Origin: Methanocellales archaeon
GTDB taxonomy: Archaea > Halobacteriota > JAWCLZ01
Assembly (NCBI GenBank): GCA_038850275.1
Contig: JAWCLZ010000003.1
Coordinates: 28,194 to 92,193, forward strand
DNA length: 64,000 nucleotides
Direction: 5' to 3'
The notes beneath the pieces were generated by a model. That model made no database searches. It had not been told where the DNA came from and worked only from the letters and a program-made list of their open reading frames with translations. Both the position numbers and the translations under genes were made by a program. Below are positions 7,923 through 43,422 of this stretch, piece after piece. Numbering within the stretch: the first letter of the stretch is position 1; each line of letters starts with the position of its first letter.

Positions 7923-7929
7923 GAATACC

Positions 7930-8538: not shown

Positions 8539-8591
8539 AAATACTAAATTAGATAAAGGAGAGGCATAAAATTAAATGAAAGGTGACACCA

Positions 8592-9332: not shown

Positions 9333-9334
9333 AT

Positions 9335-9400
9335 GAAATAAAAGAAATAAAATAATAAAAAATAAAAATAAAAGAGATAAAAGAAATAAAACATCAGTCT
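9335..9400. terminator. A/T-rich low-complexity spacer between convergent genes
   Basis: On the minus strand this is a T-rich run directly after the cdc6 stop. Archaeal oligo-T terminators look like this. Confidence 0.3.
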
Positions 9401-9424
9401 TAAACTGTTGCACTTTTCAAATAT

Positions 9425-10549
9425 TTAGCTCTTTAAAAGTTCAAGTACTTCCTCGGGTTCATATTTCAATGTGATTATTCTAGTTTGACCGCGCTCGCCC
9501 TTGCTTGCCCCTTTAACATCGATCAATCTCAAAGCATCGAGTTTATTGACTAATTCATAGAAAATGGTATAGCCAAGTTTTGTCTTCGCTTGAAATTCCT
9601 TATATAAATCACCAGATCTAAATTCCCCCCTTGATTCAGCTAGAATTCTAAGAAGCAATTTTTCTTCATCCTTAAGTGATTTAATTGTGTATGCTAAATG
9701 AACTAGCCTTGATTTCTCATATGCTTTTTCCACGTCCTCTATAGAGATGGTTCTGCTTGCCCTTCGCTCTGCGTTGAAGCCTGCTCTCTTAAAGAGATCT
9801 ATTCCCACCCTCAAGTCAGCTGAGCTCATAACGCAGTCAACCACTTTATCTAGTACTTCATTTGAGACCACGCCAGGGTAGAAACCGTGCTTCACTCTAT
9901 ATGCAAGGATATCTCTAACCTCGTCTCTAGTGTAAAGCGGGAAATATATCTCTTCAGCTTGAAAAATTGACTGCACTCTTGGATCAAGGACTGAATTGAG
10001 ATTTAGCGAGAGATCACTTGAGATCGCTAGCACGCCTATCTTCGCGCCTGGCTGGGTTTCGTGGGCGCGTAGTAGTGAGTACAGCACGTCATTTACTTCT
10101 TGCTCATAGATTAAATAATTCATATCATCGAGAGCAACAATTAAAACCTTCTCCTTCTCCACAAGCTGCTTGGCGATATTTGAGAAGATTTTTTTAAAGG
10201 AAACACCTGAACTCGGCGGGGTGAAGCCAAAGATTGCATGGAAAATCTTGGAGAAAACTGCGTATCTAGTGGAATCAATCTTGCAGTTCACGTGAACTGG
10301 CACAACTTTTTGAGTTACACTTCGAATTTCCTCAAATAATTTTAAAACAGCGCTTGTCTTCCCTGTGCCAGGCGGGCCTAAGAGATAAGCATCAAGTGGT
10401 CTCATTCCGCGAAGCGCTGGCTTGACACTGAATTTGAGTGCTTCCATTTGCTTCTCGCGATGCAGAATATGTTCAGGCAAAAAGTCGAGCTCGAAGTATT
10501 CTTGATTTTTAAATATCGTTTCATCCCACATCAGCATATCTTTGACCAC
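9425..10549 (-). CDS. cdc6: Orc1/Cdc6 replication initiator
   Basis: AAA+ Walker A LLGPPGTGKT, Walker B VALDDMNYL, and a C-terminal winged helix. Confidence 0.9.
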   Translation of the reverse strand: MVKDMLMWDETIFKNQEYFELDFLPEHILHREKQMEALKFSVKPALRGMRPLDAYLLGPPGTGKTSAVLKLFEEIRSVTQKVVPVHVNCKIDSTRYAVFSKIFHAIFGFTPPSSGVSFKKIFSNIAKQLVEKEKVLIVALDDMNYLIYEQEVNDVLYSLLRAHETQPGAKIGVLAISSDLSLNLNSVLDPRVQSIFQAEEIYFPLYTRDEVRDILAYRVKHGFYPGVVSNEVLDKVVDCVMSSADLRVGIDLFKRAGFNAERRASRTISIEDVEKAYEKSRLVHLAYTIKSLKDEEKLLLRILAESRGEFRSGDLYKEFQAKTKLGYTIFYELVNKLDALRLIDVKGASKGERGQTRIITLKYEPEEVLELLKS

Positions 10550-10631
10550 GTAAATTACACCTTTTGGTAAATAGATGCACTACAAATTAAAGCTATCTAC
10601 TTATTATCTAAAAAGCAATATTTGCCCTCGA

Positions 10632-11377
10632 ATGTCAAACTCAAGCAATATACTTAATCTGGTTGCTGCTTGCGCGGTGGTTTTCTGCACTCAACTTGGT
10701 ACCTTCATGCGTGTTCCAGTGATACCACTCTATGCTGAGCAGTGTCTTTTTCACTATATCTCGCTCGCACGCCACTTGAAATCATGCTGATTTATTCAAT
10801 AGCAGGAATTGGCATTGCCTCATTCACTCTTTCAATAATTGCATTTATTGGCGATATCACGAGAATAGGATACCTAGGGAAATCCTATGGCTTGTTCACC
10901 ACTTTTATGCAGATTGGATAGCAACTGGACCAGCGATTGTGGACTCGTGGCAAGCGCAGTTGGATATCGCAGTTCCTTTCTATCTCTGGCTGCGTTATAC
11001 TCTTCGCAGCACTAGCTGCTGAGATATTACTACCCAACCCAGGCTTTTCTCCCAGTTTATGCAAATAAAATTGGAATAAGTATAATTGCAATAGGCTTGA
11101 TTCTCGCATCTCAAGCAGTTGGAAATGGGATCGCCAGGCTGCCGTTTCGCGCTCGTCAGATAGAACTGGCAGGAGGATGCCATTCATATTGCTTGGCTTA
11201 ATCGTAGCTTCGCTATCCGCTGGTTTACTTGCTTCCCTCGCTGGTTGGGCGAGTTAGTATCCACGCGGAATAGAGGTTTTGCTATGGGTGTTTACAGCAC
11301 TCGCTTTTACGGAGGCAGGCTTAATTGGAGCGCTAGGGGTGTATATACTTGCTGCACGCATGCAGAGGAAAAATTGA
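10632..11377 (+). pseudogene. Disrupted MFS transporter gene with at least 5 frameshifts
   Basis: MFS-like TM segments appear in successive different frames, each ending in a stop: MSNSSNILNLVAACAVVFCTQLGTFMRVPVIPLYA, then MLIYSIAGIGIASFTLSIIAFIGDITRIGYLGKSYGLFTTFMQIG, then GLVASAVGYRSSFLSLAALY, then AFLPVYANKIGISIIAIGLILASQAVGNGIARLPF, then RMPFILLGLIVASLSAGLLASLAGW, then EVLLWVFTALAFTEAGLIGALGVYILAARMQ. Confidence 0.6.
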
Positions 11378-11414
11378 TGCGACTGGAAACCTATTTTAGG
11401 TTAGTGAAATTGAA

Positions 11415-11627
11415 ATGATGGAAGTCATTGATATCTTAATCGTCTTCGGACTAATCCTCGCTGGACTGGGGATATCTGCTGTTAAAACCGAGCTTCTCTA
11501 TCAATATGAAATGAGGAGGATGAAGACTTGGGCTTATCAGAAGAAGAAATACCTCCGAGAGCTCGCTAAGGAGAAGAAAGAGAGGGAGAGGCTAAAGGAG
11601 GGGAGGATTGATAGCCCAAGGAAATAG
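11415..11627 (+). CDS. Small membrane protein with a charged C-terminus
   Basis: An N-terminal TM segment is followed by a Lys/Glu-rich tail. Confidence 0.35.
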   Translation: MMEVIDILIVFGLILAGLGISAVKTELLYQYEMRRMKTWAYQKKKYLRELAKEKKERERLKEGRIDSPRK

Positions 11628-11663
11628 TTTTAAAAGAGAGTTTAGAAAAAAGAGTTTCTAAAT

Positions 11664-12401
11664 ATGAAGGTTGTTTTCCTTGGCACAGGAGTGGTATACC
11701 CGGAGAATGATAGAGCTCAATCTAGTATTCTTGTGAAAACCAGAACTCAAGATATTTTGCTTGACTGTGGCGATGGAGCGCTGAGGCGTGTTTATGAAAG
11801 TGGTAATTCAATCGATGATATTGACCACTTGCTTTTAACTCATAACCACTTGGATCATAACGCTGACTTTTTATCCATAGTTCGAGCTAGGCAAGAGGTG
11901 GGGAAAAATTATTTGCATATCTATGGCCCAGTTGGTACTGAACAATTGCTCAGCATTTTGCTTGAGGCATATAACTTACAATTTGATGCTCAAATTAGAG
12001 AGCTTAGCGATTCTGAAGAAATTGAAATTGGAGAGCTAACTTTAGTCTGCAGGGAAGCAGTGCATAGTATACCAGCGCTTTGCTTTAAAATCCACGCTGA
12101 GGACAAAAATTTGATTTATTCTGGGGATACTGAGCCATGTGAAAACTTGAAATCGCTATGCAGAGACCAAGTTGATCTTTTAATACACGAATGCTCATTT
12201 CCAGATGGATTTGAAAAAGTTGGACACGCAACGCCTGAGCAGTTGGGGAGGCTAATCTCAAATCTCCCAGTTGAGAAACTTGCGATTACCCATCTATACC
12301 CTCAAGCTAGGGCAGTTCTAGATGGGGTAATTGCAAGCATAGCGAGATATTATTCTGGTGAGATAATAGTGGCTGAGGATCTCTTAGAGGTGGAAGTTTG
12401 A
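11664..12401 (+). CDS. MBL-fold metallo-hydrolase (RNase Z/ElaC-like)
   Basis: HxHxDH motif (LTHNHLDHNADF) and downstream His/Asp ligands. Confidence 0.75.
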   Translation: MKVVFLGTGVVYPENDRAQSSILVKTRTQDILLDCGDGALRRVYESGNSIDDIDHLLLTHNHLDHNADFLSIVRARQEVGKNYLHIYGPVGTEQLLSILLEAYNLQFDAQIRELSDSEEIEIGELTLVCREAVHSIPALCFKIHAEDKNLIYSGDTEPCENLKSLCRDQVDLLIHECSFPDGFEKVGHATPEQLGRLISNLPVEKLAITHLYPQARAVLDGVIASIARYYSGEIIVAEDLLEVEV

Positions 12402-13124
12402 ATGCAAGGGGTTATCCTAGCCGCTGGTAGGGGAAATCGATTGCGGCCTTTAACGGATTTTGTGGCAAAGCCTCTTTTACCAATTAAGGGCAAGCCTGCG
12501 ATTATCAGTGTGATTGAAAACTTAAGAGCAGCTGGTATTGAGGAGTTCATAGTTGTAACTGGCTATCTAAGTGAGCAGATCAAAAGATTTCTCTCCAGGG
12601 AAATTGAAATCGAAATTCAATTTGTTGAGCAGCTTGAGTTAACTGGAGCAGCAAATGCATTGCTCTGCGTGAGAGAGCTTGTTAAAGGGGATTTCTTAGC
12701 TTCTGCGAGTGATTGCTTGCTACCAGTGGAGTTTCTAAATTCACTTATAGCATTTCACTTTGCTGAAAAATGTGATGCAACCATTGCTTTGAAGCGTCTC
12801 GATGCAGAGCGAATGATGGAGTCAAGCACTGTTAAGTTGAGTGGGGATAATAGAATATTGCAAATTATAGAAAAACCAGCCAAGCATGAGATTCTAAGTG
12901 AGATTTCAGCTGCCCCAATTTACATATTCAAGCCAAGGGTATTTGAATTTCTATCTAAAGTTGAAAAATCACCACGTGGGGAATATGAGGTTCAAGCTGC
13001 TATTCAAATGATGATCCAAGCCAATCTATGCGTGAAGGGATTGATTGCTGAGCACTGGATTCATCTCTCAAATCTCAAAGATTTCCTCAAGCTGAATTTT
13101 GATTACATGGATGAACTGCTTTAG
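12402..13124 (+). CDS. Sugar-phosphate nucleotidyltransferase family protein
   Basis: N-terminal GVILAAGRGNRLRPLT, the NTP-transferase G-rich loop. Confidence 0.7.
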   Translation: MQGVILAAGRGNRLRPLTDFVAKPLLPIKGKPAIISVIENLRAAGIEEFIVVTGYLSEQIKRFLSREIEIEIQFVEQLELTGAANALLCVRELVKGDFLASASDCLLPVEFLNSLIAFHFAEKCDATIALKRLDAERMMESSTVKLSGDNRILQIIEKPAKHEILSEISAAPIYIFKPRVFEFLSKVEKSPRGEYEVQAAIQMMIQANLCVKGLIAEHWIHLSNLKDFLKLNFDYMDELL

Positions 13125-13126
13125 AG

Positions 13127-14023
13127 TTAAATAAGTTCTCTTAAATAGATCTTGTGCCTCCCGAGTTTTCCCCCGTAGTTACCAGCTGATATCTTTACAA
13201 CTCCAGGGGTGTTAATCCCAGCATTTATTGCTTGCTTCATTGCTTGCTTCACTGCTTCCATTGTTATGCCATTTATCACTATCTCAGGAATGGATTTCAC
13301 GCCATTTGGAACTCTAGATTCAGAGCCTAGTTTTTGCTTTAAAGTGGGGCAGTATGGATGATTTGTGGTTGGACCTATCTCGGGATATTTTGTCTCAGGC
13401 TTTGAGCCAGCACTGCAGATGTCAAAAGAGGTAATTGCGCCTTCTATTTTTTCAATTGCCTTAACTGCTTTCTCCCCAACCTTCAATGCCGCATTGATAC
13501 TAGTGCAGAAATACCAGATGTTGCCTCCCATGATTCCCTTTGCATATCCTAAGTAGCGCTCGATTTTAAAGTCATGGCCCATCATAATAGGCACATTTAT
13601 AACCTTCCTTCCATAGTACTCCTCTTCCCATTCATATCCATCGCCGCAGTGGCCAACTTTATCCATTATATCGATTTTTTTCTCAGAATCAGTGGCATTG
13701 AAAACTGCTGTGGTGGGAACCACTAGTATCCCTTGTCTAATCCTCTTGCCTAATTCAACCTCCAAGGTCTTAACTGCTCCCTCCCCGCCTAATATCCAGA
13801 TCTGGATCAATGCGCCAACTCTTCCATCTGGGGTTTGCTTTTTAGTCAGCCATCCTTCAATTCCACCTTCACTCTGGCCAAGTACAGTCAGAGGCAATGC
13901 AGTTGAAGAGAAAGCTGCACGTTGGAGTAATTTTTTATTCCTAGCGGTTATAAGCAAGCGAGAATATAGGCCATCGAAGGCCTCGCAATAGGTATCCTCT
14001 ATAATAGCCGCCATATCAAACAC
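13127..14023 (-). CDS. ftr: Formylmethanofuran:tetrahydromethanopterin N-formyltransferase
   Basis: 298 aa. Collinear with Ftr from N-terminus (IEDTYCEAFDG...LITA) to C-terminus (ISAGNYGGKLGRHKIYLRELI). Confidence 0.9.
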   Translation of the reverse strand: MFDMAAIIEDTYCEAFDGLYSRLLITARNKKLLQRAAFSSTALPLTVLGQSEGGIEGWLTKKQTPDGRVGALIQIWILGGEGAVKTLEVELGKRIRQGILVVPTTAVFNATDSEKKIDIMDKVGHCGDGYEWEEEYYGRKVINVPIMMGHDFKIERYLGYAKGIMGGNIWYFCTSINAALKVGEKAVKAIEKIEGAITSFDICSAGSKPETKYPEIGPTTNHPYCPTLKQKLGSESRVPNGVKSIPEIVINGITMEAVKQAMKQAINAGINTPGVVKISAGNYGGKLGRHKIYLRELI

Positions 14024-15001
14024 CTAATATTCCCTAGTTATCATATAGTTTGCCAGCTGCGCTAGGAGTGTTCTTGCGTGAGTTTGAGGCAGTACCTCGA
14101 GTTTTTTCTTTCCCTTTTCAACCATGAGCTTAGCTTTTCTCATGGCATATGTAATTGAGCCAGCTTGTTCAAGTATTTCAACTGCCCTTCCTATCTCGCC
14201 CTCGCTGGCTAGTTTGGCAAGTAAATTGAGATCTATACCTTTGGATTGCGCGTGTATCGCAACTAGTGTTTTCTTCTTCTCAATCAAATCACTTCCCCGT
14301 GGTTTTCCAAGTATCTCTTGCGGGGCGATTAGATCTAGGACATCATCTCGTATTTGAAAACCAATTCCAGTTACCAAGCCTATTTCATAAAGCGCATTTA
14401 CCTGCATTTCACTTCCCCCTCCCAGGAGCCCACCTATTGAGGTTGATGCAGCGAATAGCATGCCTGTTTTCTTGCGCACCATCTCTAAGTATTCCTTAAT
14501 GCTCACTGTTTCGCGCTTTTCAAAATCAAGGTCAAGCCATTGTCCTTCGCAGATCTCAGTGAGTGCTCTTGAGAGAATATCTATGCTGGCAACGATTCTC
14601 TCTGGTTGAGCCTTGGATTTAGCTAGGATCTCAAAGGCCTTGCAACATAGGGTATCGCCAGCGAGTATTGCACTTGAGGTATCCCATTTCACGTGCACCG
14701 CTGGTATGCCACGCCTGAGCTCGTCTTCATCCATTATATCATCGTGTATCAAGGTGAAGTTGTGCACTAGTTCAACTGCAACTGCTGCTGGTATTACATT
14801 TTCCGAGTTGCCCAGAACTGCCTCTGCAGCGAGCATGAGCATCACTGGTCTCAATCTCTTTCCCCCTGCATCAAGCAAGTGCCTTGAGGCTCTATAGAGC
14901 TCCTTAGGATGGGAAATTGGGAGATATTTTTTAATTGCTTCGTTAACTAATGCTGTTCTCTTTTTCAATTCAGCTTTTAAATCAAGTTCTTCAACTTTCA
15001 A
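14024..15001 (-). CDS. idsA: Polyprenyl (geranylgeranyl) diphosphate synthase
   Basis: FARM motif LIHDDIMDEDELRRG and SARM motif FQIRDDVLD. Confidence 0.85.
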   Translation of the reverse strand: MKVEELDLKAELKKRTALVNEAIKKYLPISHPKELYRASRHLLDAGGKRLRPVMLMLAAEAVLGNSENVIPAAVAVELVHNFTLIHDDIMDEDELRRGIPAVHVKWDTSSAILAGDTLCCKAFEILAKSKAQPERIVASIDILSRALTEICEGQWLDLDFEKRETVSIKEYLEMVRKKTGMLFAASTSIGGLLGGGSEMQVNALYEIGLVTGIGFQIRDDVLDLIAPQEILGKPRGSDLIEKKKTLVAIHAQSKGIDLNLLAKLASEGEIGRAVEILEQAGSITYAMRKAKLMVEKGKKKLEVLPQTHARTLLAQLANYMITREY

Positions 15002-15009
15002 GGTTTCAC

Positions 15010-16347
15010 CTACTCAAGAATTAATTCCTGGCCATTTCTAAGCACATGCAGGGTATCCCCAAGGATATAACCTGCTTCTTCAGCCATTTCTGCATATGAG
15101 CTATTCATATATATATCGCCGTGTGAGGGAATCACATTCTCAGGGCTAACCATTCGCAAGAGTTCCCAGTGGTCCTCTCTATATGCATGTCCTGAAACAT
15201 GCACATTGGTATATACCCTCGCTCTCTTCATCTTTAGCTTTGTTTCAATTGCATATCTATTAGCTTCATTCACTGGATTTGGTATTACATTAGCGGAGAA
15301 GATCACTCTATCATCAGGCTCTATTTTAAAAGGCGAGTCTCCATTTGCAATCCTATTGAGAACCGAGCCAGGCTCGCCTTGATGTCCAGTTGTGATTAAA
15401 AGATAATTAGCCTTTCCATCTTCCATTACTTGCTTTAGCATGCGATCTATATCTTTCTTATCCCCGCAGATCTTAACTTCTTGGTGCTCGAGATAGCCCA
15501 TTTTAATAGCTGTGCCGTAGTATCTCTCCATAGATCTACCCAGTAGTACTGGCATTCTCCCAATCTCCAAAGCTGCATCAACTATGGATTTGATCCTAGC
15601 TATATGGGAGGAAAAAGTGGTTACTATTATCCCTTTTTTTAAATCCTCCACCCCAAGTAGTGCATCAAATATTAATTCCCTTGCCACGCGCTCGGAGGGG
15701 GTTTTGCCTGATTTGCCTGCGTATATGGTTTCAGTTATCATAGCTATAACTCCCTGCTTTGAAAGCTGTCTGAGGCGAGAAGTATCAGGTGGTTCGCCTA
15801 GAACTGGCAAGCGATCTAATTTGAAGTCATTTGCATATAGCAGTATTCCCCCAGGGGTATGCAGTGCCACGAATACGCAGTCAATTATACTATGCTGTAC
15901 TCTAATGAACTCAGCTTGAATATCTGGGCTAATTTGATAGAATTCACCTGCTTTAAGTGGAATAACTTTATTTTCCACTCCAAATTTCTTCTCAGCAGCG
16001 ATCTCATGCTCTATAAGTGCTGAGGTATAAGGAGTGGAGATAATTGGAGCTGCGTAGCGATGAGCTAGCTTAGGCAACGCTCCAATGTGATCTAGGTGTC
16101 CATGAGTGCATATGATTGCCTTGATCTTTCCAGCTATGTCTTTTATAACGCTATCATCTGGAATGGCACCTATTTTTATTAAATCCATGGAGTGGATTTT
16201 TTCGATCTCAACATCTTCGTGGATCAAGACTCTATCAAGCCTTAATCCCATGTCAAAGATCACTGCTTCATCGCCAATTCTAACTGCAGTCATATTGCGG
16301 CCTACTTCATCGTAGCCTCCTATTGCTATTATTCCAATTTCAGTCAA
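15010..16347 (-). CDS. Archaeal RNase J-like beta-CASP ribonuclease
   Basis: MBL HxHxDH motif (THGHLDHIG), beta-CASP region, about 445 aa. Confidence 0.8.
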   Translation of the reverse strand: MTEIGIIAIGGYDEVGRNMTAVRIGDEAVIFDMGLRLDRVLIHEDVEIEKIHSMDLIKIGAIPDDSVIKDIAGKIKAIICTHGHLDHIGALPKLAHRYAAPIISTPYTSALIEHEIAAEKKFGVENKVIPLKAGEFYQISPDIQAEFIRVQHSIIDCVFVALHTPGGILLYANDFKLDRLPVLGEPPDTSRLRQLSKQGVIAMITETIYAGKSGKTPSERVARELIFDALLGVEDLKKGIIVTTFSSHIARIKSIVDAALEIGRMPVLLGRSMERYYGTAIKMGYLEHQEVKICGDKKDIDRMLKQVMEDGKANYLLITTGHQGEPGSVLNRIANGDSPFKIEPDDRVIFSANVIPNPVNEANRYAIETKLKMKRARVYTNVHVSGHAYREDHWELLRMVSPENVIPSHGDIYMNSSYAEMAEEAGYILGDTLHVLRNGQELILE

Positions 16348-16353
16348 TTTGAT

Positions 16354-17439
16354 CTACCTCGTTGAATAGTGCTTTATATTAAATCCCCTTTGCTCTAGAA
16401 ATTCCCTAGTTTTGCCCGTTATCACTAGTTGAGCTTTCTTCAAATCTTCTATGCAAGCGCAGCCACTCAAGAACATTGCAACTTTAAGTTCTTCCATGAT
16501 TAACTTAAGTTTCTCAATCACAGCTACCTCGCTCTTGAGCGCTGGCTTTAGCAATGGCAAGGCAATTCCACAGAGAGAGGCACCTAAGGCAATTGCTTTT
16601 GCAGCATCCAAGCCTGATCTTATTCCACCTGTGGCAATCACGTGCATGTCCTCACTAACCTTTGACTCCACGATGCTAACCGCAGTTGGAATGCCCCAGT
16701 TCCAGAATAATTTACCAAGGCTTTCTCTAACTGCATTTTTCTCAGCAACTGCTCTATAATATTCCACTCCCGCAAAGCTAGTACCGCCTAAGCCTCCAAC
16801 GTCAATCGCGGCTACCCCTGCTTTTTTCAATTCCCAAGCAACTTTATGTGAGATCCCAGCACCGGTTTCTTTAACGATTATGGGAACTTTGCTGGCTTTG
16901 CATATCTCCTTAATCTCCGCGAGCACGCCTTTAGCATTAACATCCCCCTCAAGCTGAATTGCCTCCTGCAAGAAGTTGAGGTGAATTGCCATCGCATCTG
17001 CATCTATCATTTCAATTGCCCTCTCTATGCCCTCAATTCCATATTTCCTTAGCTGTGCAGCGCCAAGATTGCCATATATAAAAGCACTGGGGGCATAATC
17101 CCTAACCACTCTATATGTATCTTCTAAACTGCTGTTCTCGAGAGCAGCCCTCTGACTTCCAACTCCTATGCCTATTCCCAGTTCTTCAGCTGCTTTAGCA
17201 AGTGCTATGTTTACTTTTTTTGTATCCTTGTGCCCCCCAGTCATTGATGCTATTAGCAATGGTGCCTTAAATTCATGTTCCAAGAAGTTTATGGAATATT
17301 CAATGACATCTTTATCCACCTCTGGGAGTGCATTGTGAATTAGGTATATATCCTCAAATCCACTCCACTTTGACTCAACCTCTTTCTCAGCGCAGATATA
17401 TAGATGTTGAATTTTGCGATTTGATGTCTCGCGAGACAT
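16354..17439 (-). CDS. fni: Isopentenyl-diphosphate delta-isomerase, type 2 (FMN-dependent)
   Basis: IDI-2 TIM-barrel signatures. ATG at 17439 (MSRETSNRKIQHL...) is the likely start. The ORF track extends to an upstream GTG at 17457 that overlaps the tandem repeat. Confidence 0.85.
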   Translation of the reverse strand: MSRETSNRKIQHLYICAEKEVESKWSGFEDIYLIHNALPEVDKDVIEYSINFLEHEFKAPLLIASMTGGHKDTKKVNIALAKAAEELGIGIGVGSQRAALENSSLEDTYRVVRDYAPSAFIYGNLGAAQLRKYGIEGIERAIEMIDADAMAIHLNFLQEAIQLEGDVNAKGVLAEIKEICKASKVPIIVKETGAGISHKVAWELKKAGVAAIDVGGLGGTSFAGVEYYRAVAEKNAVRESLGKLFWNWGIPTAVSIVESKVSEDMHVIATGGIRSGLDAAKAIALGASLCGIALPLLKPALKSEVAVIEKLKLIMEELKVAMFLSGCACIEDLKKAQLVITGKTREFLEQRGFNIKHYSTR

Positions 17440-26023: not shown

Positions 26024-27307
26024 ATGCCTGAAACTTTAAGGATCGAACTTGGAAGAATGAGGATCTCAGGTAATCAAGCAATTGCAAGGGGAGCAATTGA
26101 AGCGGGAGTTCGAGTTACATGTGCTTACCCAGGCGCTCCAATTTCAGATCTACAGAATACCTTTGAATCTCTAGCAAAGAAACCTGGTTATCCTAGAAAT
26201 AATCCCTTTACCATTAAACTAGGGGAAGCATTGGATAAAGCTGGTTATGAACTCGTTGCCAAATGGGGTGAGATGACCAATGAACCTAATGCTCTTTCCT
26301 TTGCACTTGGAAATATAATCTGCAAAGGGGATAAGAAAGCGCGGGAATATATAACCCCTGAGGAGTATGATGTAATATATGGAGAAACAATTTTCTCTAA
26401 GCAGAAGATCTTAACCAAGGATGAAATCCCAGTTGGCTCCAGAGTTATGTGCTCAGTTAAACATCTTGGAGGTAATACCGCTGCAGACGTGGCTAGAACT
26501 CTCATGAATATAATTCCATATCCAGGGGGTCTTGCGATAGCAAGTGGAGACGATCGCCAGGGAACTGCTTCTCAAACAATGCAGGATAATAAAGTGCTAT
26601 TTGCCTGGCATTTTAGAATGCCAACCTTTGAAGTTCACAATCCAGCTAATGCTCATATAACCGTGAGAAATGCCTATAAACTCTGCGAAGAGCTAGGCGT
26701 GCCATTTGCGATAATTGAGAATTACAATCAATCCTATCGAGAGGTTGCCACTGATGTTACCCTTGAGATAGACATGCAAGCAAATAAAAGAAAAAAGGGA
26801 TTCACCCCAGATCCCTATAACCTTGTTACAATTGGACCGCAGATTAGACCTAAGGAGAAGAGACACTGGGAGAAGATTATTCCACTTATGAAGAAGAAGT
26901 TCTCGGATTACTTTGAATTTTTAAACAACGAGGTTATTCGCTATTCCGAGAATCCAACTAAACTAGTTATAGTTAATGGTCCATTTAGAGAGGACTTCAA
27001 CTACATTAGAAGCAGTGAAGCGAGGGAAAGGGAATTCAAGCGGGTTTATAAAAATCCAGTGGTCATAGCCAGCGATTTAGTGTGGCCTCTTCCCAGTGAG
27101 CTATATAAGAAGATCTTCGAGGAAAGCTCCATCGATGAAGTCTATGTCTTCGAAGAAGGCTATGGCAGAGTGATGTACTTCGAGACTCTGGATTTCATAA
27201 ATAGCAATGAATTCAATGTAAAAGTTAGAAATAGAGGCATTCCATATGAGCCTAGAATGTATGAAAGATTCTCCTACGCTGGCCATATAATGGCAAGCGC
27301 AAGTTAG
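26024..27307 (+). CDS. 2-oxoacid/indolepyruvate:ferredoxin oxidoreductase alpha-like subunit (pyrimidine-binding and transketolase-C-like domains)
   Basis: N-terminal GNQAIARGAIEAGVRVTCAYPGAPISD and ASGDDRQGTASQTMQDNK are collinear with the IorA/PorA N-terminal half. Confidence 0.7.
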   Translation: MPETLRIELGRMRISGNQAIARGAIEAGVRVTCAYPGAPISDLQNTFESLAKKPGYPRNNPFTIKLGEALDKAGYELVAKWGEMTNEPNALSFALGNIICKGDKKAREYITPEEYDVIYGETIFSKQKILTKDEIPVGSRVMCSVKHLGGNTAADVARTLMNIIPYPGGLAIASGDDRQGTASQTMQDNKVLFAWHFRMPTFEVHNPANAHITVRNAYKLCEELGVPFAIIENYNQSYREVATDVTLEIDMQANKRKKGFTPDPYNLVTIGPQIRPKEKRHWEKIIPLMKKKFSDYFEFLNNEVIRYSENPTKLVIVNGPFREDFNYIRSSEAREREFKRVYKNPVVIASDLVWPLPSELYKKIFEESSIDEVYVFEEGYGRVMYFETLDFINSNEFNVKVRNRGIPYEPRMYERFSYAGHIMASAS

Positions 27308-38364: not shown

Positions 38365-39200
38365 TTAGCTTTTATGCCATTGACACTTTCCATTGACACA
38401 TTTGCATTCCAATTCATATTTCTTTGCATCATAGCATTCTCTCCATTCACATGTTGTAATTATTGGTTCTTCATATTTGGATTGGCAAACTTGTCCAGAG
38501 CAGCCGCTTTTTATGCAATCAAAATCAGATGAGCAATTCCCATAAGTTGACCAACCGCAGAATGGCTTGCATTCCCCTCTGTAAAATGCCCATTCTTCGC
38601 ATTCGCTTCCATCTGGGAAAATACATACACCATATTCATTTCCTTCTTTATCCTTTCTAAACTCCCACCTTGCTCCATACAATAAATTGAGGCTGGATTT
38701 GGTAGTGTCTCTTCATTTTCAATTTCAATATTTACTTCTTTTTGCCATAAAAGTTCTCCAGCGATGCTTTCAAATTCGACACCCCAGATTTGAATTATAT
38801 ATTTCCCTTTCCCTAGAGGCCCAATTTTCATGTTAACTTCATAATCACATATACATCTGCATATTTCACCCTCATTTTTTTCTTTTATTTTAATCAAAAT
38901 ATAATTTTTATAGGTTTCTACGTGGTTCAAATAAACCTTAATTTTGGCACAGCAGACATAGCTCAAGTGATGAGTTAAATTGATAAAACCATCGTTGAGT
39001 TTTAAATCCACTTTTTCCACGCCTTTCGTCCTTGTATACTCTCTTTCAATCTTTTCCTCGCACCCGCTTATATTATAATAAAGTTTTATCTCAAGAGAAG
39101 GAGCAGTTAACTTCTCAAAATACATAAAATATAGAAATAAACCAATTGCTGCAACTAAAACACTGAGCAATAAAACTCCAAGGATTGATTTACTTCTCAT
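38365..39200 (-). pseudogene. Secreted Cys-rich DUF333-domain protein interrupted by a -1/+2 frameshift
   Basis: The upstream ORF (signal peptide plus an N-terminal domain) ends ...NPASIYCMEQGGSLE. The DUF333 continuation WEFRKDKEGNEYGVCIFPDGSECEEWAFYRGEC plus a C-terminal 8-Cys domain is in another frame. The junction is at about 38650-38665. Confidence 0.6.
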
Positions 39201-39694: not shown

Positions 39695-40402
39695 TCAAGC
39701 TACTTTTAAATTAATTTTTGAAATGCCGCAATATAGTTTTGTTCCAGGGAAAGTAATGATGGCTATTTTTCCCTCGCCATAGCTAACATTTAACCCTAGG
39801 GTTTCATTGAAATATCTGCCCCATTCTCTATAGTAATTGCTTTTAATTATCACAGTAGTGTTATTGGTATAAATCGGAGAGGCTAATTTACTGGCTTTTG
39901 CTATTATTCTAATCACTCCTTCTCCAGCCTTTGAGTCCGAGCCAGCTAGCTCTATTACTGGTAAATATGAAACATTGCCCTTTGAAGCTCTAGGTGGCGC
40001 TAGAATTAAGGTGCTTTCCTCATATAAATATTTCACGAAGACAGCGCTGTTTTCATAGGCTATCACACGGTCAGCTAGCTCATACTCCACTGAGCCCAAG
40101 GAATATCGAGTTCCTTCGATTTCTATCCAGCTTTCGTTTACTAGAGAAATGCATCCATCTTTTATTTTTACCTCGCTCGTTCTCGATGGAGCCTGTGCGA
40201 GTGCCACTTCATCGATATTTGCCTTGAGCACTGAAAAGCTCTGCTCCATTTCACTAAGATGCGTCGACTTCTCAGCTGCATCGAGTACAGGCAAGCCATG
40301 GGTGTAAAAAAGCATTCCTGCCATGAGCACTGTGGAGAGTATTAATATATATCCAATTGCATTTGTAAGCGCGTCTTCCATCTTCAACATATTTTGCCTC
40401 AC
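39695..40402 (-). CDS. Pilin-like protein with an N-terminal TM/class-III-like signal (operon gene 5)
   Basis: N-terminus KMEDALTNAIGYILILSTVLMAGMLF, then a beta-rich domain. Start overlaps the stop of the upstream gene. Confidence 0.45.
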   Translation of the reverse strand: MRQNMLKMEDALTNAIGYILILSTVLMAGMLFYTHGLPVLDAAEKSTHLSEMEQSFSVLKANIDEVALAQAPSRTSEVKIKDGCISLVNESWIEIEGTRYSLGSVEYELADRVIAYENSAVFVKYLYEESTLILAPPRASKGNVSYLPVIELAGSDSKAGEGVIRIIAKASKLASPIYTNNTTVIIKSNYYREWGRYFNETLGLNVSYGEGKIAIITFPGTKLYCGISKINLKVA

Positions 40403-41859
40403 GAGCTGTATTTAATGAATACTTGAACGCAGTCCCAAGTTATTTCATCAAGCTTATTTTTCTTCGATATATAGACCCTCAAGTTATAAGCTGTGTTATT
40501 ACTCGGGCTTGCAGTTTCATTGAACCAGTAGGTTTTAGCTCCATTTAGCTCTATGGATTTATCTGAGATCAAGCCTGAAACTTCGAGGTGCAGGTTATCA
40601 CTGCCTCCATTCTGAGTGTGGCTGCTGATATTTATTGCTATATCGACTTCAAAGCCATGCATACCGCTGGGAAAGACTGGTGTAAATGAATAAATTTTTT
40701 CAAGAGAACCGCCTGATGGCGTGAAGCTCGCTGGTTCTAAGTCGCTGCTATTCCAAGTACCTATAATTGGTATAGTTACATTCACTACGTTGGATAGCGC
40801 TCCCTCAACTCCACTGTTGTTAACAACGGTAACTGCGTAGTAATATGTCATTCCCTGAGTTTTAACACTTGAATCTAGGTAGCTTGCGGGTGAGTCAAAC
40901 CAAGAGTTCGCTAGAAGCGTGGCTGTACCTAGATTTGAGTCATTTATGGGCTCGGTGCTTCTATAGATTTTATAGCTTGCCACTGATCCTATGGCTGGCT
41001 TTGTCCATCTAAGAAGTACGTCGGGATATGTTAAAACCACTGCATTTAAATCGCTAACATTACCAGGGGGTAGTCCAATTACTTTATATACCCTTAAATC
41101 ACTCGCAGTGTTGCCAGTTCGATCATAGGCTATGGCTTTAACTCTATATTCCCCATTTGGATATCTCTCGGTATTCCACTCCCATTGATAGGGATATTCA
41201 GCTGTGTAAACAAGGGTATCATTTAAGTAGTACTCCACTTTAACTACATATATATTATCCACTGCATTTACCCTTAGTTTCACTGTTTGTGAAATAGTTG
41301 AGCCATTTGCAGGACTAGGTGCAGTGAATGCGATTACCGGTGGCGTAGTGTCTATTGATGCATCGCATTCTCCAATAGTAATTACGCCAGTTGTGCGATT
41401 GAATCTCAAGATCTTTGTTTTTTCCGCGCTGGATATACTGCAATTTGCCACCGCTATTAATGGACTGATTGGTATTTTCACCTCTATATTGCGATTGACC
41501 TCAGGAACTAGTTTCACTAATCCTCTTTGTATTGCTATGGTGTAGAAGCTACCTCCTGCTTTGCTGGGAATTTCGACTTGAGAGGTTAATTCAATTATTT
41601 CTCCAGCTATGCTCGCGGTATTTATAACTCCATCAAAATCTTGGATTTTTGAGACTAAATCGCTGCCAATTGAACTGAGCTCGCGATATATAGCTATGTC
41701 AGTGGTGCTTATTAATATGCCTTGAAAGGATAGCGCTATGATGGAGAGTAAAACTGCAGAGATAGAGAAGGTTAATAGCAATTCAACTGTTACTGTCAAT
41801 GCATTTTCATCTTTCATATATATCCACCTTGATTTTTTCCTCGAGCTTAAGGATTCCAT
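40399..41859 (-). CDS. Large surface protein with a pilin-like N-terminus and FN3/Ig-like domains (operon gene 4)
   Basis: N-terminus KDENALTVTVELLLTFSISAVLLSII. It has many N-glycosylation sequons, and YKVIGLPPGNVSDLNAVVLTYPDVLLRWTKPAIGSVASYKIYRS is FN3-like. Confidence 0.5.
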   Translation of the reverse strand: MESLSSRKKSRWIYMKDENALTVTVELLLTFSISAVLLSIIALSFQGILISTTDIAIYRELSSIGSDLVSKIQDFDGVINTASIAGEIIELTSQVEIPSKAGGSFYTIAIQRGLVKLVPEVNRNIEVKIPISPLIAVANCSISSAEKTKILRFNRTTGVITIGECDASIDTTPPVIAFTAPSPANGSTISQTVKLRVNAVDNIYVVKVEYYLNDTLVYTAEYPYQWEWNTERYPNGEYRVKAIAYDRTGNTASDLRVYKVIGLPPGNVSDLNAVVLTYPDVLLRWTKPAIGSVASYKIYRSTEPINDSNLGTATLLANSWFDSPASYLDSSVKTQGMTYYYAVTVVNNSGVEGALSNVVNVTIPIIGTWNSSDLEPASFTPSGGSLEKIYSFTPVFPSGMHGFEVDIAINISSHTQNGGSDNLHLEVSGLISDKSIELNGAKTYWFNETASPSNNTAYNLRVYISKKNKLDEITWDCVQVFIKYSS

Positions 41860-42232
41860 CTTGGTATACTAAAGTGAGATTGAGATAGTCTAACGTTTGA
41901 TTTAGGTAATCTAAGTGGATTTCAACAGCTTCACCTCTCGCTGCATATAGCAAGGTAGTTGCGTTTACATAGGAATTGAAGTAGGAATGAAAGGTTGAAT
42001 TGAAAAAATCGCTACTGGTTTTATTTGCTTTTAAAACTGCATTTCTTGCCTCGCGAATTGTCATTTCCTGAAGGGATTTGAAGTGCTGCTTGCTTGGATA
42101 AAGTCCCGTCCCTGGAATGTTGCTTGTCAAGATTACATCGTTGAGTAGAATGGTTATTAATAGTAGGCTTAGCAACATGATGAATGCACTTAAGAGGATC
42201 ATTTGTCCCTCTCCATCTTTTTCCACATTCAT
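41807..42232 (-). CDS. Type IV pilin-like protein (operon gene 3)
   Basis: N-terminus GEGQMILLSAFIMLLSLLLITILL, with G-Q at the putative class III cleavage site. Confidence 0.45.
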   Translation of the reverse strand: MNVEKDGEGQMILLSAFIMLLSLLLITILLNDVILTSNIPGTGLYPSKQHFKSLQEMTIREARNAVLKANKTSSDFFNSTFHSYFNSYVNATTLLYAARGEAVEIHLDYLNQTLDYLNLTLVYQDGILKLEEKIKVDIYER

Positions 42233-42234
42233 GG

Positions 42235-42795
42235 CTACATCCTCCAGAGGGTGAGTTTAACTAGCACTAGGTTGTAAAAATCTGAGGTGCTATCTATATC
42301 TTTAATTGGATTGTTTTTATTGATTTTATCGCTATCGTAAATAACCACGGATTCATATACTGTAACCGCGTTATCAGAAGGCTCTCCATTCCAGATTATT
42401 GCTCCCGTTGCGAGATCCCATTTTGATGTGTTTATATATATTATTTCTAAATCATAGGCTATGCCTCGATTTGAGAGCGTGGAGATGAGGAGTTTTTCAA
42501 ATTCACTAAGATTCAATTTCCCCTGTAAGTTATTCTCTCGAGTCCCAGTCCAGTTTAATATGTTGCTTTTCAATGGCGAGCTGATATTCAAGGGATCTGG
42601 AGAGTAGTTAGATGTAGTTAATAAATCTTGACCAAGCATTGCTAAGTAAAACTCGATTTGCTGATTCGATGCAGAGGAGGTAAGGGGAGTTAGTGGGGTG
42701 GCTTTGGTTATGAATAGGAGTGCTGCTAGGATTAATGAAGCAGCTGCAAGTGCTTCTAAGGTGTAGAGTTGTCCAGATTCGTTTAATTTCACCAT
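42235..42795 (-). CDS. Type IV pilin-like protein (operon gene 2)
   Basis: N-terminus ESGQLYTLEALAAASLILAALLFI, a G-Q...E motif. Confidence 0.45.
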   Translation of the reverse strand: MVKLNESGQLYTLEALAAASLILAALLFITKATPLTPLTSSASNQQIEFYLAMLGQDLLTTSNYSPDPLNISSPLKSNILNWTGTRENNLQGKLNLSEFEKLLISTLSNRGIAYDLEIIYINTSKWDLATGAIIWNGEPSDNAVTVYESVVIYDSDKINKNNPIKDIDSTSDFYNLVLVKLTLWRM

Positions 42796-43292
42796 ATCAT
42801 CACCAATAGTATCAATCTTTCTTCCAATTCACTTGCGAGCACTACTCTCTTGGCTTGAGCAACTGTTGAGAAATCTGGTGGCGTTTTTCCAACCTTGAGC
42901 ACTGCCTGTGAATTTTCTAGGTATATGCTGTCATTTAAAAATCGAAGCTCTAGGTATAGTTCGTATTTTCTATTTGCTGTTACTAGTCCAAGTTCATTTA
43001 TTTTACTCTCATAGGAATTGCTTAGTGAACTATTCAACTCTCTAGCTTTTTCAAGTGAGATCAAGCCGGGGTTTTGAGGATTTACTGCAAGTCCTCTTGG
43101 GTCTTCAATTAAAAAGGCTGCTATTCTATTTGCTAGGAAATTCACATTCTCTGATTCAGATTGAAATGGAACGAAAAGTCCAGTTATGCTTTGAAAAAGA
43201 AATAAAAATGCCAGTGAGAATATGATTATTCCAGCTATGAAATCCAAGCTAATTTGAGCACAGGAGTCTAGTCTCTTAATCATTTCTTTCAC
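42789..43292 (-). CDS. Type IV pilin-like protein, DUF361-type signal (operon gene 1)
   Basis: N-terminus RLDSCAQISLDFIAGIIIFSLAFLFLF, matching the archaeal QxSxEF-type class III signal. Confidence 0.5.
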   Translation of the reverse strand: MKEMIKRLDSCAQISLDFIAGIIIFSLAFLFLFQSITGLFVPFQSESENVNFLANRIAAFLIEDPRGLAVNPQNPGLISLEKARELNSSLSNSYESKINELGLVTANRKYELYLELRFLNDSIYLENSQAVLKVGKTPPDFSTVAQAKRVVLASELEERLILLVMIW

Positions 43293-43422
43293 TTTTGATT
43301 AATATTCTAATTTATCTTCATTATATATCAATTATTACCAATATAATTAAAATTTTTCTAATAATTTTAAAAAACTTTGAAAAAGAAATCTTTAAGCATA
43401 GAGATTTGAATAACATAAAGCA

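Follow-up and report, generated by a model that had tools for sequence, protein, structure and literature searches.

A five-gene pilin and pilin-like cassette of the known euryarchaeal clade 2 pilus system in a Methanocellales archaeon

Five minus-strand genes of a Methanocellales archaeon form an operon that is real, yet already catalogued; it adds one more, ordinary member to a known PilB4-type pilus system, itself known from genes alone. The operon probably encodes a five-protein cassette of pilins and pilin-like proteins belonging to a pilus of the euryarchaeal clade 2 / system 2 (PilB4-type) and acting as an accessory complex, with gene 4 as the adhesive component. The window, meaning the whole stretch of DNA that was analysed, comprised 64 000 nucleotides of one contig.

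Family identity and organization of the cassette

The five genes matched, in order, the Pfam families DUF7287, DUF7288, DUF7261, DUF7266 and DUF7289 (Table 1). Dedicated families were matched by four of the five with E values from 3e-5 to 2e-38 (gene 1, 2.2e-18; gene 4, 3e-5; gene 5, 2.3e-20), and gene 3 matched DUF7261 at 2.4e-4, under the gathering score, and was recruited to the position-3 family by an iterative profile search. Gene order was identical in all 78 related loci fetched, which were drawn from Methanosarcinales, Methanoperedens, ANME-2, Archaeoglobi and Methanocellales-like genomes. Co-ordering of the families in these loci, together with the E values, indicates that the operon is more than a chance grouping.

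Table 1. Positions in the window of the cassette genes, the upstream region and the modules of gene 4
Feature	Position	Strand	Length	Description
Gene 1	42789-43292	minus	167 aa	DUF7287; cassette position 1; arCOG06117 in PMC4858521
Gene 2	42235-42795	minus	186 aa	DUF7288; position 2; arCOG04652
Gene 3	41807-42232	minus	141 aa	DUF7261-like; position 3; arCOG07777/06552
Gene 4	40399-41817	minus	472 aa (486 aa from 41859 ATG)	DUF7266; position 4; arCOG03926
Gene 5	39695-40402	minus	235 aa (231 aa from 40390 ATG)	DUF7289; position 5; arCOG02911
Divergent intergenic region	43293..43422		130 bp	Between cassette and cupin-type PGI gene
Gene 4, residues 1-153	41359..41817	minus		Signal peptide, hydrophobic helix and conserved DUF7266 domain; pilin-type (hhalign)
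Gene 4, residues ~160-246	41080..41340	minus		Big_7 Ig-like; Pfam E = 7.2e-16; confident beta domain (AF2)
Gene 4, residues ~250-348	40774..41070	minus		FN3-like; homologue annotation and Foldseek
Gene 4, residues ~350-472	40402..40770	minus		C-terminal beta-sandwich; all-beta AF2 model

As judged by gene order and family sizes, the cassette corresponds to arCOG06117-04652-07777/06552-03926-02911. Archaeoglobus operons of this composition appear among the clade 2 pilins in Table S4 of Makarova et al. 2016 (PMC4858521) and make up the pilins of the PilB4-type variant of the type IV pilus of euryarchaeal clade 2 / system 2 (Fig. 4B). The family of gene 5, arCOG02911, serves as signature pilin for euryarchaeal systems of clade 2. 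The cassette has the same five families, order and N-terminal motifs as this set, and the A. fulgidus copy likewise lies away from the ATPase/TadC genes and has an enlarged fourth protein. The clade of the window differs from the clade 2 set in lacking its usual sixth gene, in having the shortest gene 3 of a family that spans 141 to ~800 aa, and in the extension of gene 4 by Big_7, FN3-like and beta-sandwich modules. The sixth gene, present in most lineages, encodes a second DUF7289 protein of ~450–500 aa, with DUF7308 in addition in Methanolobus.

All of the ORFs and junctions of the overlapping or abutting genes listed in a preliminary description were found and comprised, in gene order 1 to 5, a 7-nt overlap, a 2-nt gap, a 53-nt overlap and a 4-nt overlap. 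The third of these shrinks to 11 nt with a better start for gene 4: an AGGTGG Shine–Dalgarno-like motif lies 8 nt upstream of the ATG at 41817 and is missing from the ATG at 41859, and the NCBI record also places the start at 41817, which is most likely correct and yields 472 aa. Shine–Dalgarno-like motifs precede genes 2–4, and gene 5 may start at 40390, as in its orthologues. The upstream region, previously noted as AT-rich and shared, had a computed A+T content of 84.6 %, and the divergent gene beyond it encodes a cupin-type glucose-6-phosphate isomerase (PGI; PF06560 in syntenic loci). A ATATATAA element is located ~30–40 nt upstream of the gene 1 start, and the region presumably holds the promoters of both the cassette and the PGI gene.

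N-termini and relationship to pilins

The preliminary description regarded all five proteins as pilin-like, each with a charged start ahead of a hydrophobic helix. A single N-terminal hydrophobic segment was confirmed in each protein, and the motifs AQISLDF, GQLYTLE, GQMILLS, DENALT and MEDALT were all found, within N-termini reading (arrow after the junction Gly or Ala) ...DSCA↓QISLDF, ...ESG↓QLYTLE, ...GEG↓QMILLS, ...DENA↓LTVTVE and ...MEDA↓LTNAIG for genes 1 to 5. When conservation was computed over about 100 sequences per family, a near-invariant Gly or Ala was present at the polar/hydrophobic junction in all five families. The gene 1 family had Gly or Ala in 97 %, Gln at +1 in 96 % and Asp at +5 in 99 %, the gene 2 family had Glu at +6 in 98 %, Gln at +1 was conserved in 100 % of the gene 3 family and Ala occupied −1 in 92 % of the gene 5 family. 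The −2 residues of genes 1–3 are Cys, Ser and Glu, mostly not the Lys or Arg typical of FlaFind-positive proteins.

Homology to PilA-like pilins (Pilin_N-type set) was detected with hhalign for the N-terminus of gene 4 (95.1 %, E = 3.3e-8) and for gene 5 (94.5 %, E = 7.4e-8), and was not detected with PilA-type pilins for genes 1–3 (0.6–1.0 %; gene 1, 0.6 %). At the level of sequence profiles, homology to the N-termini of archaeal type IV pilins can be demonstrated for genes 4 and 5 alone; it backs the earlier assignment for these two but not for genes 1–3, in which a Gly/Ala-Gln junction precedes the hydrophobic helix. None of the five proteins matched Pfam Pilin_N or Class_IIIsignal at E ≤ 1. 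This result and the several non-canonical −2 residues would fit ordinary Sec signal peptides or anchors on unrelated proteins clustered by accident. Such an origin, already disfavoured, is very improbable given that the families keep one order in 78 loci and are joined into pilB–pilC operons in haloarchaea, that the conserved Gly/Ala lies before and not after the hydrophobic segment, and that genes 4 and 5 align at ~95 % with PilA-like N-termini.

In the confident model of gene 2, a transmembrane helix and then a long helix precede an alpha/beta head domain. No pilin was present among its structural neighbours and the nearest structures were extracytoplasmic sensor domains (PDC/PAS), an observation that counts against the pilin and pilin-like cassette. 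Together with the absence of detectable pilin homology, it suggests that genes 1–3 could be membrane-anchored parts of the machinery. These three proteins, perhaps all five, would then not be filament subunits and would instead form a bitopic envelope scaffold (like PilN/PilO, GspL/GspM or FlaF/FlaG), or a short pseudopilus that displays gene 4 without a long pilus. This is quite unlikely, as Gly/Ala-Gln, whose distance to the hydrophobic helix is fixed, looks more like a site of processing than like a simple anchor, the conserved acidic residues of genes 1 (+5) and 2 (+6) are pilin-like features, and a scaffold would be expected to be linked to pilB/pilC but the cassette is usually unlinked.

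An analogy with EppA-processed DUF361 pilins, drawn in the preliminary description, proved to be a resemblance only. PF04021 (DUF361) was not matched by any of the five proteins in Pfam, and EppA is confined to organisms that have a clade 1 system, a type missing from Methanocellales and Methanosarcinales (PMC4858521). Because of this restriction, a PibD/FlaK-type peptidase is the likelier processing enzyme. The Epd pilins of Methanococcus maripaludis (EppA, DUF361 / Class_IIIsignal, clade 1) have the Gly/Ala-Gln junction of genes 1–3, an acidic residue at +5 in QxSxEF as in QISLDF of gene 1, and, as predicted for the cassette, a requirement for several minor pilin-like proteins beside a separately encoded major pilin. 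However, the cassette families lack a PF04021 match and go with clade 2 ATPases (PilB3_N/C domains). At the N-terminus of genes 4 and 5, a likeness was seen with the adhesion pilins PilA1-6 of Haloferax volcanii, whose DA↓VS and RA↓VS sites match the type D/E-x-A↓V/L-S/T and which have profile homology to these two genes at the PilA-like N-termini. These pilins, used with PilB3-PilC3, are also encoded in trans to the motor, a principle common to the cassette. Each of them is a small major pilin that stands alone, and their hydrophobic domains are almost identical, whereas the cassette consists of five dissimilar co-transcribed proteins, three of them with Gln at +1.

Position relative to the assembly motor genes

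No assembly ATPase, platform protein or prepilin peptidase was detected in the window, in agreement with the earlier reading. T2SSE ATPase, T2SSF platform and A24 peptidase families were not found by Pfam in ORFs of ≥200 aa outside ~30–53 kb or, for the 30–53 kb part, among the Pfam assignments precomputed for the syntenic locus L002. Similarly, tblastn gave no match in the window with haloarchaeal PilB and PilC of the same system type (E ≤ 1e-3) or with Methanoperedens PilB and PilC (E ≤ 1e-2); the haloarchaeal queries did recover their Methanoperedens orthologues, with E values of 1e-123 and 1e-79. The available flanks of 77 of the 78 related loci contained no pilB or pilC, and separation from these genes is how the cassette occurs as a rule in related lineages and does not set the window apart.

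Linkage was observed in other lineages. Plasmids of Halobaculum and Haloferax mediterranei carry T2SSE(PilB3_N/C)-T2SSF with the five families directly downstream, and in a Methanoperedens locus (L018) pilB, pilC and a Pilin_N pilin lie 1.5–6.7 kb downstream of the cassette; separate small Pilin_N genes are found beside pilB/pilC in L018, L084 and L085. In three other Methanocellales-labelled MAGs (L087–L089), pilB-pilC-kaiC is located between a permuted, related cassette, which is divergent from it, and the same PGI gene. In the window, the cassette and the PGI gene have nothing between them. Occupation of the equivalent spot in these MAGs suggests that pilB-pilC-kaiC was lost or moved from the window locus.

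This absence, and that of the sixth gene of most lineages, could mark the cassette as a decaying, non-functional remnant, a possibility that is highly improbable because none of the five reading frames is broken, either in the window or in the loci that represent four related species (L002, L006, L007 and L008), dN/dS is 0.08–0.23 for all five genes, and the detached arrangement is the norm. The ratios were obtained across these four species of the clade without adjacent pilB/pilC (L003 and L004 duplicate L002) and were 0.11–0.18 for gene 1, ~0.14 for gene 3, 0.15–0.23 for gene 4 and 0.15–0.17 for gene 5. This indicates that all five genes are under purifying selection, with function retained.

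Gene 4 modules and the predicted role of the cassette

Gene 4 was previously described as large, sequon-rich and FN3-like, which was borne out with a correction of its length from 486 to 472 aa. Residues 1–153 had a pLDDT of <50 and a predicted pattern of two helices followed by strands. The Pfam fn3 family was not matched in gene 4; the FN3-like region can be aligned with the homologue P0082, which has fn3 among its precomputed Pfam assignments, and the model matched tandem FN3/Ig structures with Foldseek E values down to 3e-9. The C-terminal module (pLDDT mostly 87–94, with dips to 69–79) had no Pfam match and was conserved only within eight close homologues. Lengths vary widely at positions 3 and 4 and in the sixth gene; the gene 4 family ranged from 147 to 605 aa in the fetched loci (~157 aa in most Methanosarcinaceae, ~600 aa in Methanoperedens and ANME-2) and reaches 959 aa in A. 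fulgidus. Sequon density was 24.7–35.5 per 1000 aa for genes 2–5 and 12.0 for gene 1, as compared with 3.6 for 41 other window genes (3.3 to 10 times the background), and argues for surface exposure of the cassette proteins.

The gene 4 family, arCOG03926, was predicted to be a major and not a minor pilin (PMC4858521), which is at odds with an accessory role. The cassette would in that case be the whole filament, with DUF7266/arCOG03926 as major pilin and the other four proteins as minor subunits (Makarova et al. 2016, Fig. 4B), in keeping with the PilA-type homology of the gene 4 N-terminus and with the typical major-pilin size of this protein in most Methanosarcinaceae. For the window this is rather unlikely: a 472 aa protein with three extra beta domains, and one of ~600 or 959 aa elsewhere, would be hard to pack in bulk, gene 4 is one among five overlapping genes with no sign of higher expression, and small Pilin_N genes accompany pilB/pilC in the three loci noted above. 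An accessory role is favoured by cassette genes that are single-copy and overlapping, by the variable lengths at positions 3 and 4 and in the sixth gene, and by the separate Pilin_N genes.

Minor-pilin priming or tip complexes of bacteria include GspH-I-J-K of type II secretion and FimU-PilV-W-X-E with PilY1, and PilB and PilC of Streptococcus sanguinis are modular pilins. Like the former, the cassette is an operon in which four to five dissimilar pilin-like proteins, other than the major pilin, are encoded in a fixed order, and, like the latter, it has one member with a grafted module, adhesive in bacteria and predicted to be so in gene 4. It has no sequence or demonstrated structural homology to these bacterial systems and differs from them in its archaeal N-termini and in the type of peptidase; for the cassette, formation of a complex and location at the tip are predictions.

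Under the favoured reading of an accessory complex, the N-terminal hydrophobic helices would insert all five proteins into the membrane, where a PibD/FlaK-type class III signal peptidase would cut after the conserved Gly/Ala. The cassette proteins would then be handled in trans by a PilB3-like ATPase and a PilC/TadC platform, whose genes would lie at another place in the genome. These proteins would not be the bulk of the filament, which would consist mainly of a separate small PilA-type pilin, and may instead form a roughly equimolar complex at its base or tip that primes or caps it. The pilin-type N-terminus of gene 4 would plug into this complex, and its glycosylated Big_7, FN3-like and beta-sandwich modules would face outward as the adhesive part.

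Family identity and layout of the cassette

On one strand and in transcription order, the five genes correspond to the Pfam families DUF7287, DUF7288, DUF7261, DUF7266 and DUF7289, the ordered set by which a clade 2 (system 2, PilB4-type) cassette of archaeal type IV pili is recognized. Three of the five Pfam matches exceeded the gathering score, with DUF7261 and DUF7266 slightly under. DUF7266 is among the Pfam domains precomputed for the gene 4 product in NCBI, and iterative profiles assigned all five genes to the position-specific families of 78 related loci. NCBIfam returned nothing for any of the five proteins, a PDB sequence search with gene 5 found none at E <= 10, and no papers were found in a literature search on the DUF numbers. 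Makarova, Koonin and Albers (2016; PMC4858521) list this ordered set in their Table S4 as the Archaeoglobus operon for clade 2 pilins, in the order arCOG06117, arCOG04652, arCOG07777 or arCOG06552, arCOG03926 and then arCOG02911 once or twice, and regard it as the PilB4-type form of type IV pilus in euryarchaea. The correspondence between Pfam DUFs and arCOGs is drawn from gene order and protein size, not from a direct cross-reference. The preliminary description was correct in its observation and right in its general interpretation; the system itself has been catalogued since 2016 (PMC4858521) and has its own Pfam families, and the window adds no new kind of system. It holds a new five-gene form with a Big_7/FN3-extended DUF7266 protein, an enlarged fourth protein being already known from A. 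fulgidus.

Coordinates of the cassette genes, of other features of the window and of features in related loci (L-numbers, loci fetched from other genomes; Pfam E-values)
Sequence	Feature	Position	Strand	Length	Annotation
Window	Gene 1	42789-43292	minus	167 aa ORF	DUF7287, E = 2e-18
Window	Gene 2	42235-42795	minus	186 aa ORF	DUF7288, E = 2e-38
Window	Gene 3	41807-42232	minus	141 aa ORF	DUF7261, E = 2e-4, below gathering score
Window	Gene 4	40399-41859	minus	486 aa ORF from upstream ATG	DUF7266, E = 3e-5, just below gathering score; Big_7, E = 7e-16
Window	Gene 5	39695-40402	minus	235 aa ORF	DUF7289, E = 2e-20
Window	Ribosomal protein S8e	ends 39691	plus
Window	Cupin-type glucose-6-phosphate isomerase (PGI)	starts 43423	plus
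Window	DUF333 gene	38365-39200	minus	229-aa and overlapping 105-aa ORFs	NPASIYCMEQGG; WEFRKDKEGNEYGVCIFPDGSECEEWAFYRGEC
Window	ORF upstream of TPP_enzyme_C and POR domain genes	26024-27307	plus	427 aa
Window	Cdc6/Orc1 gene, then stretch without ORF >= 120 aa	9425-11663		stretch of 1.1 kb
L087	Permuted cassette and motor block	6253-15184
L088	Permuted cassette and motor block	4171-12969
L089	Permuted cassette and motor block	6231-15026
L088	TFIIB gene split by intein	869-3370			PF14890, PF14528
L089	TFIIB gene split by intein	2989-5484			PF14890, PF14528
L005	Six-gene cassette, tandemly duplicated	4732-14232
L024	Second, more divergent five-gene cassette	14305-17377
L081	Coiled-coil protein directly upstream of cassette	1825-5082		1085 aa	FlaD/E domain, PF04659, E = 4e-28
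L059	Giant surface protein	3115-9180		2021 aa	VWA and Big_1 domains

The five genes are consecutive and overlap or lie <=2 nt apart, and the overlapping or abutting minus-strand ORFs of the preliminary description were all recovered, as were the N-terminal strings that it had quoted from the proteins. Plus-strand genes bound the cassette on both sides, which makes it a self-contained transcription unit, preceded by a 130-bp divergent region of 84.6% A+T. The start of gene 4 is most likely 41817, giving 472 aa, as AGGTGG precedes the ATG at this position and the NCBI record uses it; for gene 5 a start at 40390, matching that of its orthologues, is possible. (In NCBI, window proteins carry locus tags QXJ68_ and accessions MEM29244xx, and the contig measures 98.5 kb.) Each protein has one hydrophobic segment, located at the N-terminus, in agreement with the hydrophobic helix first described for all five. 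Sequons are frequent in genes 2-5 (24.7-35.5 per 1000 aa; 12 sequons in gene 4), with 12.0 per 1000 aa in gene 1 and 3.6 in 41 other genes of the window.

Three other features of the window were recorded. The longer ORF of the DUF333 gene has an N-terminal membrane segment and stops just where the DUF333 domain begins, and the overlapping ORF carries the domain on in another frame; this looks like a frameshift near 38690, from a pseudogene or an assembly error. For the ORF immediately upstream of the TPP_enzyme_C and POR domain genes, Pfam gave no match at E <= 0.01, a surprising outcome if this ORF encodes the alpha subunit of a 2-oxoacid:ferredoxin oxidoreductase. The ORF-free stretch beside Cdc6/Orc1 is a candidate replication origin; a search of it for direct or inverted repeats >= 14 bp found none.

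Pilin character of the five proteins

Alignment of about 100 N-termini per family gave a class III signal pattern in all five families, consisting of a polar N-region, Gly or Ala at -1 (97-100% per family) and a hydrophobic stretch of about 20 residues. As a sequence pattern, this marks a putative cleavage site. With an arrow at the predicted cut, the gene 1 family has [G/A]↓Q-x-x-x-D-[Y/F] (G/A 97%, Gln+1 96%, Asp+5 99%), the gene 2 family [A/G]↓Q-x-[H/Y]-T-L-E (Gln+1 95%, Thr+4 97%, Glu+6 98%), the gene 3 family [A/G]↓Q (Gln+1 100%), the gene 4 family D-E-x-[A/G]↓[V/L]-[S/T] and the gene 5 family E-x-A↓[V/L]-[S/T] (Ala-1 92%). A FlaFind-type rule places a charged residue (K/R/D/E) at -2. At this position the window proteins have, from gene 1 to gene 5, Cys, Ser, Glu, Asn and Asp, and K, R or N is most frequent there across the gene 1 family.

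The families were compared, profile against profile, with four PilA-like pilins from loci L018, L084 and L085, the L018 member of which scores E = 5e-25 with PF07790 (Pilin_N). The gene 4 family matched this set at 95.1% (E = 3e-8) and the gene 5 family at 94.5% (E = 7e-8), indicating that both are pilins by homology. Their junctions are of the same type as the DA↓VS and RA↓VS sites of Haloferax PilA1-6. The gene 1, 2 and 3 families reached only 0.6%, 0.8% and 1.0%. On these profiles genes 4 and 5 appear to be the only true PilA-type pilins among the five, so that the original grouping of five pilin-like proteins holds by homology for this pair, while genes 1-3 would be pilin-like only through their junction motif, hydrophobic helix and genomic company. 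It is for these three that a second alternative has to be weighed, namely that they encode parts of a membrane scaffold and not filament subunits. The predicted structure of gene 2 matched no solved pilin or pseudopilin; the gene 2 and gene 4 families matched each other at 66%, with their junctions aligned.

Of the archaeal pilin and DUF361 models proposed as a check, neither PF07790 nor PF04021 matched any of the five proteins at E <= 1. Genes 1-3 recall the Methanococcus EppA substrates in their Gln+1. However, the clade 1 EppA/DUF361 motif QxSxEF has Gln+1 and Glu+5, whereas gene 1 has Asp+5 and gene 2 has Glu+6. EppA is reported only from organisms with clade 1 systems. Together with the lack of a PF04021 match, this makes a broad-specificity PibD-type peptidase a likelier candidate than the EppA/DUF361-type processing suggested at first.

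The AlphaFold model of gene 4 was unreliable for residues 1-153 and confident for residues 154-472, which form three beta domains: an Ig-like Big_7 domain, an FN3-like domain (residues about 250-348) and a beta-sandwich without family assignment. Only eight full-length homologues, all of the same clade, were present in the protein collection, and with an alignment of only nine sequences the N-terminal domain was not confidently modelled (pLDDT < 50). No fn3 (PF00041) match was found in gene 4 by Pfam. The FN3-like residues align with a chitodextrinase-like homologue, P0082, which has fn3 among its precomputed Pfam domains, and the model matches tandem Ig/FN3 structures (Foldseek, E down to 3e-9). 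The earlier idea of an FN3 adhesin seems reasonable at the level of the modelled fold, with adhesion as a putative function. These modules bear on the main alternative for this protein: arCOG03926, to which gene 4 would correspond, is a 'Pilin, FlaG/FlaF/PilA family' and was predicted to be the major pilin in PMC4858521. The homology of gene 4 to PilA-like pilins is consistent with such a role, but its Ig/FN3 modules and its variability suit a minor pilin that presents an adhesin better than they suit a major pilin.

Related loci and linkage to the motor genes

One genome per species was scanned with a DUF7288 alignment, giving 78 loci from Methanocellales-labelled MAGs, Methanoperedens, ANME-2, Methanolobus, Methanococcoides, Methanohalophilus, Methanomethylovorans, Methanohalobium and Archaeoglobaceae. 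The DUF7288 profile matched 568 representatives among 1.84 billion proteins, a family of medium size, and its named homologues are all archaeal. Two short cassette contigs in bacterial MAGs (L020, 3.2 kb, Anaerolineales; L032, 1.5 kb, Ignavibacteria) most likely result from contamination during binning. With the five window proteins as queries, iterative profile searches recovered the order 1-2-3-4-5 in every sufficiently long locus. Most lineages have an extra sixth gene, encoding a second DUF7289 protein of about 450-500 aa, which in Methanolobus additionally carries DUF7308.

Lengths of the gene 3 and gene 4 products and presence of the sixth gene, by lineage
Lineage	Gene 3 (aa)	Gene 4 (aa)	Sixth gene
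Window clade (L002-L004, L006-L008)	140-144	477-486	absent
Methanosarcinaceae	about 285	about 157	present
Methanoperedens and ANME-2	about 550-590 in many loci; about 245-280 in others	about 600, with the same DUF7266 and Big_7 start, in many loci; about 155-170 in others	present
Archaeoglobi	about 790	about 153	present

Several loci had further elaborations. Methanolobus and some other Methanosarcinaceae have the six-gene cassette as a tandem duplication (L005, L015, L021, L022, L056, L061 and L079), and many Methanolobus loci, such as L024, contain a second, more divergent cassette with a gene 1 of 308-327 aa. The coiled-coil protein of the Methanohalobium locus L081, with its C-terminal archaeal flagella FlaD/E domain, belongs to a cluster present in 11 loci (median 659 aa). 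Giant proteins like that of L059 form a cluster from 18 loci and recur near the cassette in Methanolobus-type loci; vWA proteins are named in PMC4858521 as possible modulators of type IV pili.

Copies of the cassette were found on haloarchaeal plasmids by tblastn with gene 2 as the query. In Halobaculum halophilum and Haloferax mediterranei they are annotated as a type II/IV secretion ATPase, a type II secretion F protein and then five 'hypothetical' genes, which Pfam resolved as T2SSE with PilB3_N/C, T2SSF, DUF7287, DUF7288, DUF7261, DUF7266 and DUF7289. This indicates that on these plasmids the cassette physically belongs to operons with the motor genes pilB (ATPase) and pilC (platform). The window and the 78 loci were then searched by tblastn with the authentic haloarchaeal PilB and PilC. 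No match was obtained in the window, and the sole match among the loci was in Methanoperedens L018, with pilB and pilC 3.7-6.7 kb downstream of the cassette and the Pilin_N pilin 1.5 kb downstream. About 781 kb of flanks were searched in the 78 loci, with >= 5 kb on both sides in only 19 of them. Walker-A regular expressions for PilB had matched only ABC, Rad50/SMC, A-ATPase and EF-1alpha proteins in the loci and were superseded by tblastn. Pfam found no T2SSE, T2SSF or A24 peptidase in window ORFs >= 200 aa outside about 30-53 kb; for 30-53 kb, coverage comes from Pfam domains precomputed for the syntenic locus L002. Both approaches bear out the initial statement that no assembly ATPase or platform is present, the Pfam results also bear it out for the prepilin peptidase, and a clade 2 VirB11/PilB-type ATPase and TadC/PilC platform are not associated with the cassette within the 64-kb window.

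An association of cassette and motor was seen in relatives, namely on the haloarchaeal plasmids, in L018 and in L087-L089. The A. fulgidus copy sits between TFIIE and ribosomal protein genes (PMC4858521), and detached copies of this kind indicate that motor linkage is typical and not obligatory. Outside haloarchaea the cassette is nearly always unlinked from the motor; with PilB/PilC matches in only one of the 78 loci, L018, detachment is the rule in these lineages and not a peculiarity of the window. It is argued in PMC4858521 that ATPase/TadC modules can serve pilins encoded in trans.

Local history and proposed role of the cassette

Three other Methanocellales-labelled MAGs (L087, L088 and L089) came to light in a homology search with Methanoperedens PilB. 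Among the matches listed (120 of 7979), there were four Methanocellales-labelled PilB, all from assemblies other than the source MAG. The cassette order in L087-L089 is DUF7289, DUF7266, DUF7287, an enlarged DUF7288 (418-434 aa) and a 130-141-aa protein, which was found to have a gene 3-type N-terminus in L087. Divergent from this cassette are genes for a PilB3-like ATPase, T2SSF, a KaiC-like ATPase (PF06745 and DUF7125) and a cupin-type PGI, with NAD synthase close by after PGI, and methylene-H4MPT dehydrogenase (MTD) too in L087. The TFIIB gene beside the pil locus in L088 and L089 is split by an intein with a LAGLIDADG endonuclease.

PGI (62% identity to L087), NAD synthase (47%) and MTD (50%) all lie around the window cassette, with an interval of just 130 bp between gene 1 and PGI. 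These arrangements would be explained most simply if pilB-pilC-kaiC once lay between cassette and PGI and was then lost or relocated, with inversion of the segment. The window and L087-L089 cassettes differ in gene order and share only 22-33% identity, so one type of cassette may instead have been exchanged for another at this position. The cassette shows no decay: each of its five genes is intact in loci that stand for four related species, with pairwise dN/dS against the window of 0.08-0.23, and it is under purifying selection.

For a clade 2 pilus cassette established as having two pilin-type subunits and a modular fourth subunit, and as being under purifying selection in a motor-free window, the following mechanism may be proposed. 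A PibD/FlaK-type peptidase would cleave the proteins after the conserved Gly or Ala, a PilB3-like/PilC pair from another locus would handle them, and they would form an accessory (priming or tip) complex and not the bulk filament. An accessory complex is favoured because the five genes are single-copy and translationally coupled, because the products at positions 3 and 4 and of the sixth gene range in length between lineages from about 140 to about 960 aa, which suits display subunits, and because small Pilin_N genes adjoin pilB/pilC wherever the motor is in view.

A broader and rather doubtful extension is that the cassette might be the archaeal counterpart of the bacterial minor-pilin priming/tip complex, a portable and self-contained module serviced in trans by any resident clade 2 PilB-PilC. 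Positions 3, 4 and the sixth gene would then be exchangeable adhesive display sites. The conserved Gln+1 trio and PilA-type pair would be two classes that differ in processing or assembly, such as initiators close to the membrane and subunits compatible with the filament, and the motor would have been excised here from between cassette and PGI while the cassette was kept under selection. If this were true, motor excision with a selected cassette would be natural evidence for servicing in trans.

Methanogens, methane oxidisers and haloarchaea widely carry PilB4-type (system 2) loci; according to a 2026 preprint on type IV filaments of archaea, what system 2 loci besides pilB3C3 do is still unclear, and the Haloferax papers describe the role of PilB4-PilC4 likewise. 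The value of the comparison across loci lies in the division between two pilin-type proteins and three with Gln+1, the almost general separation of cassette and motor outside haloarchaea and the apparent excision of pilB-pilC-kaiC here. Surface adhesion and cell-cell contact matter in the consortia of ANME and Methanoperedens relatives, and those relatives carry the same extended gene 4.
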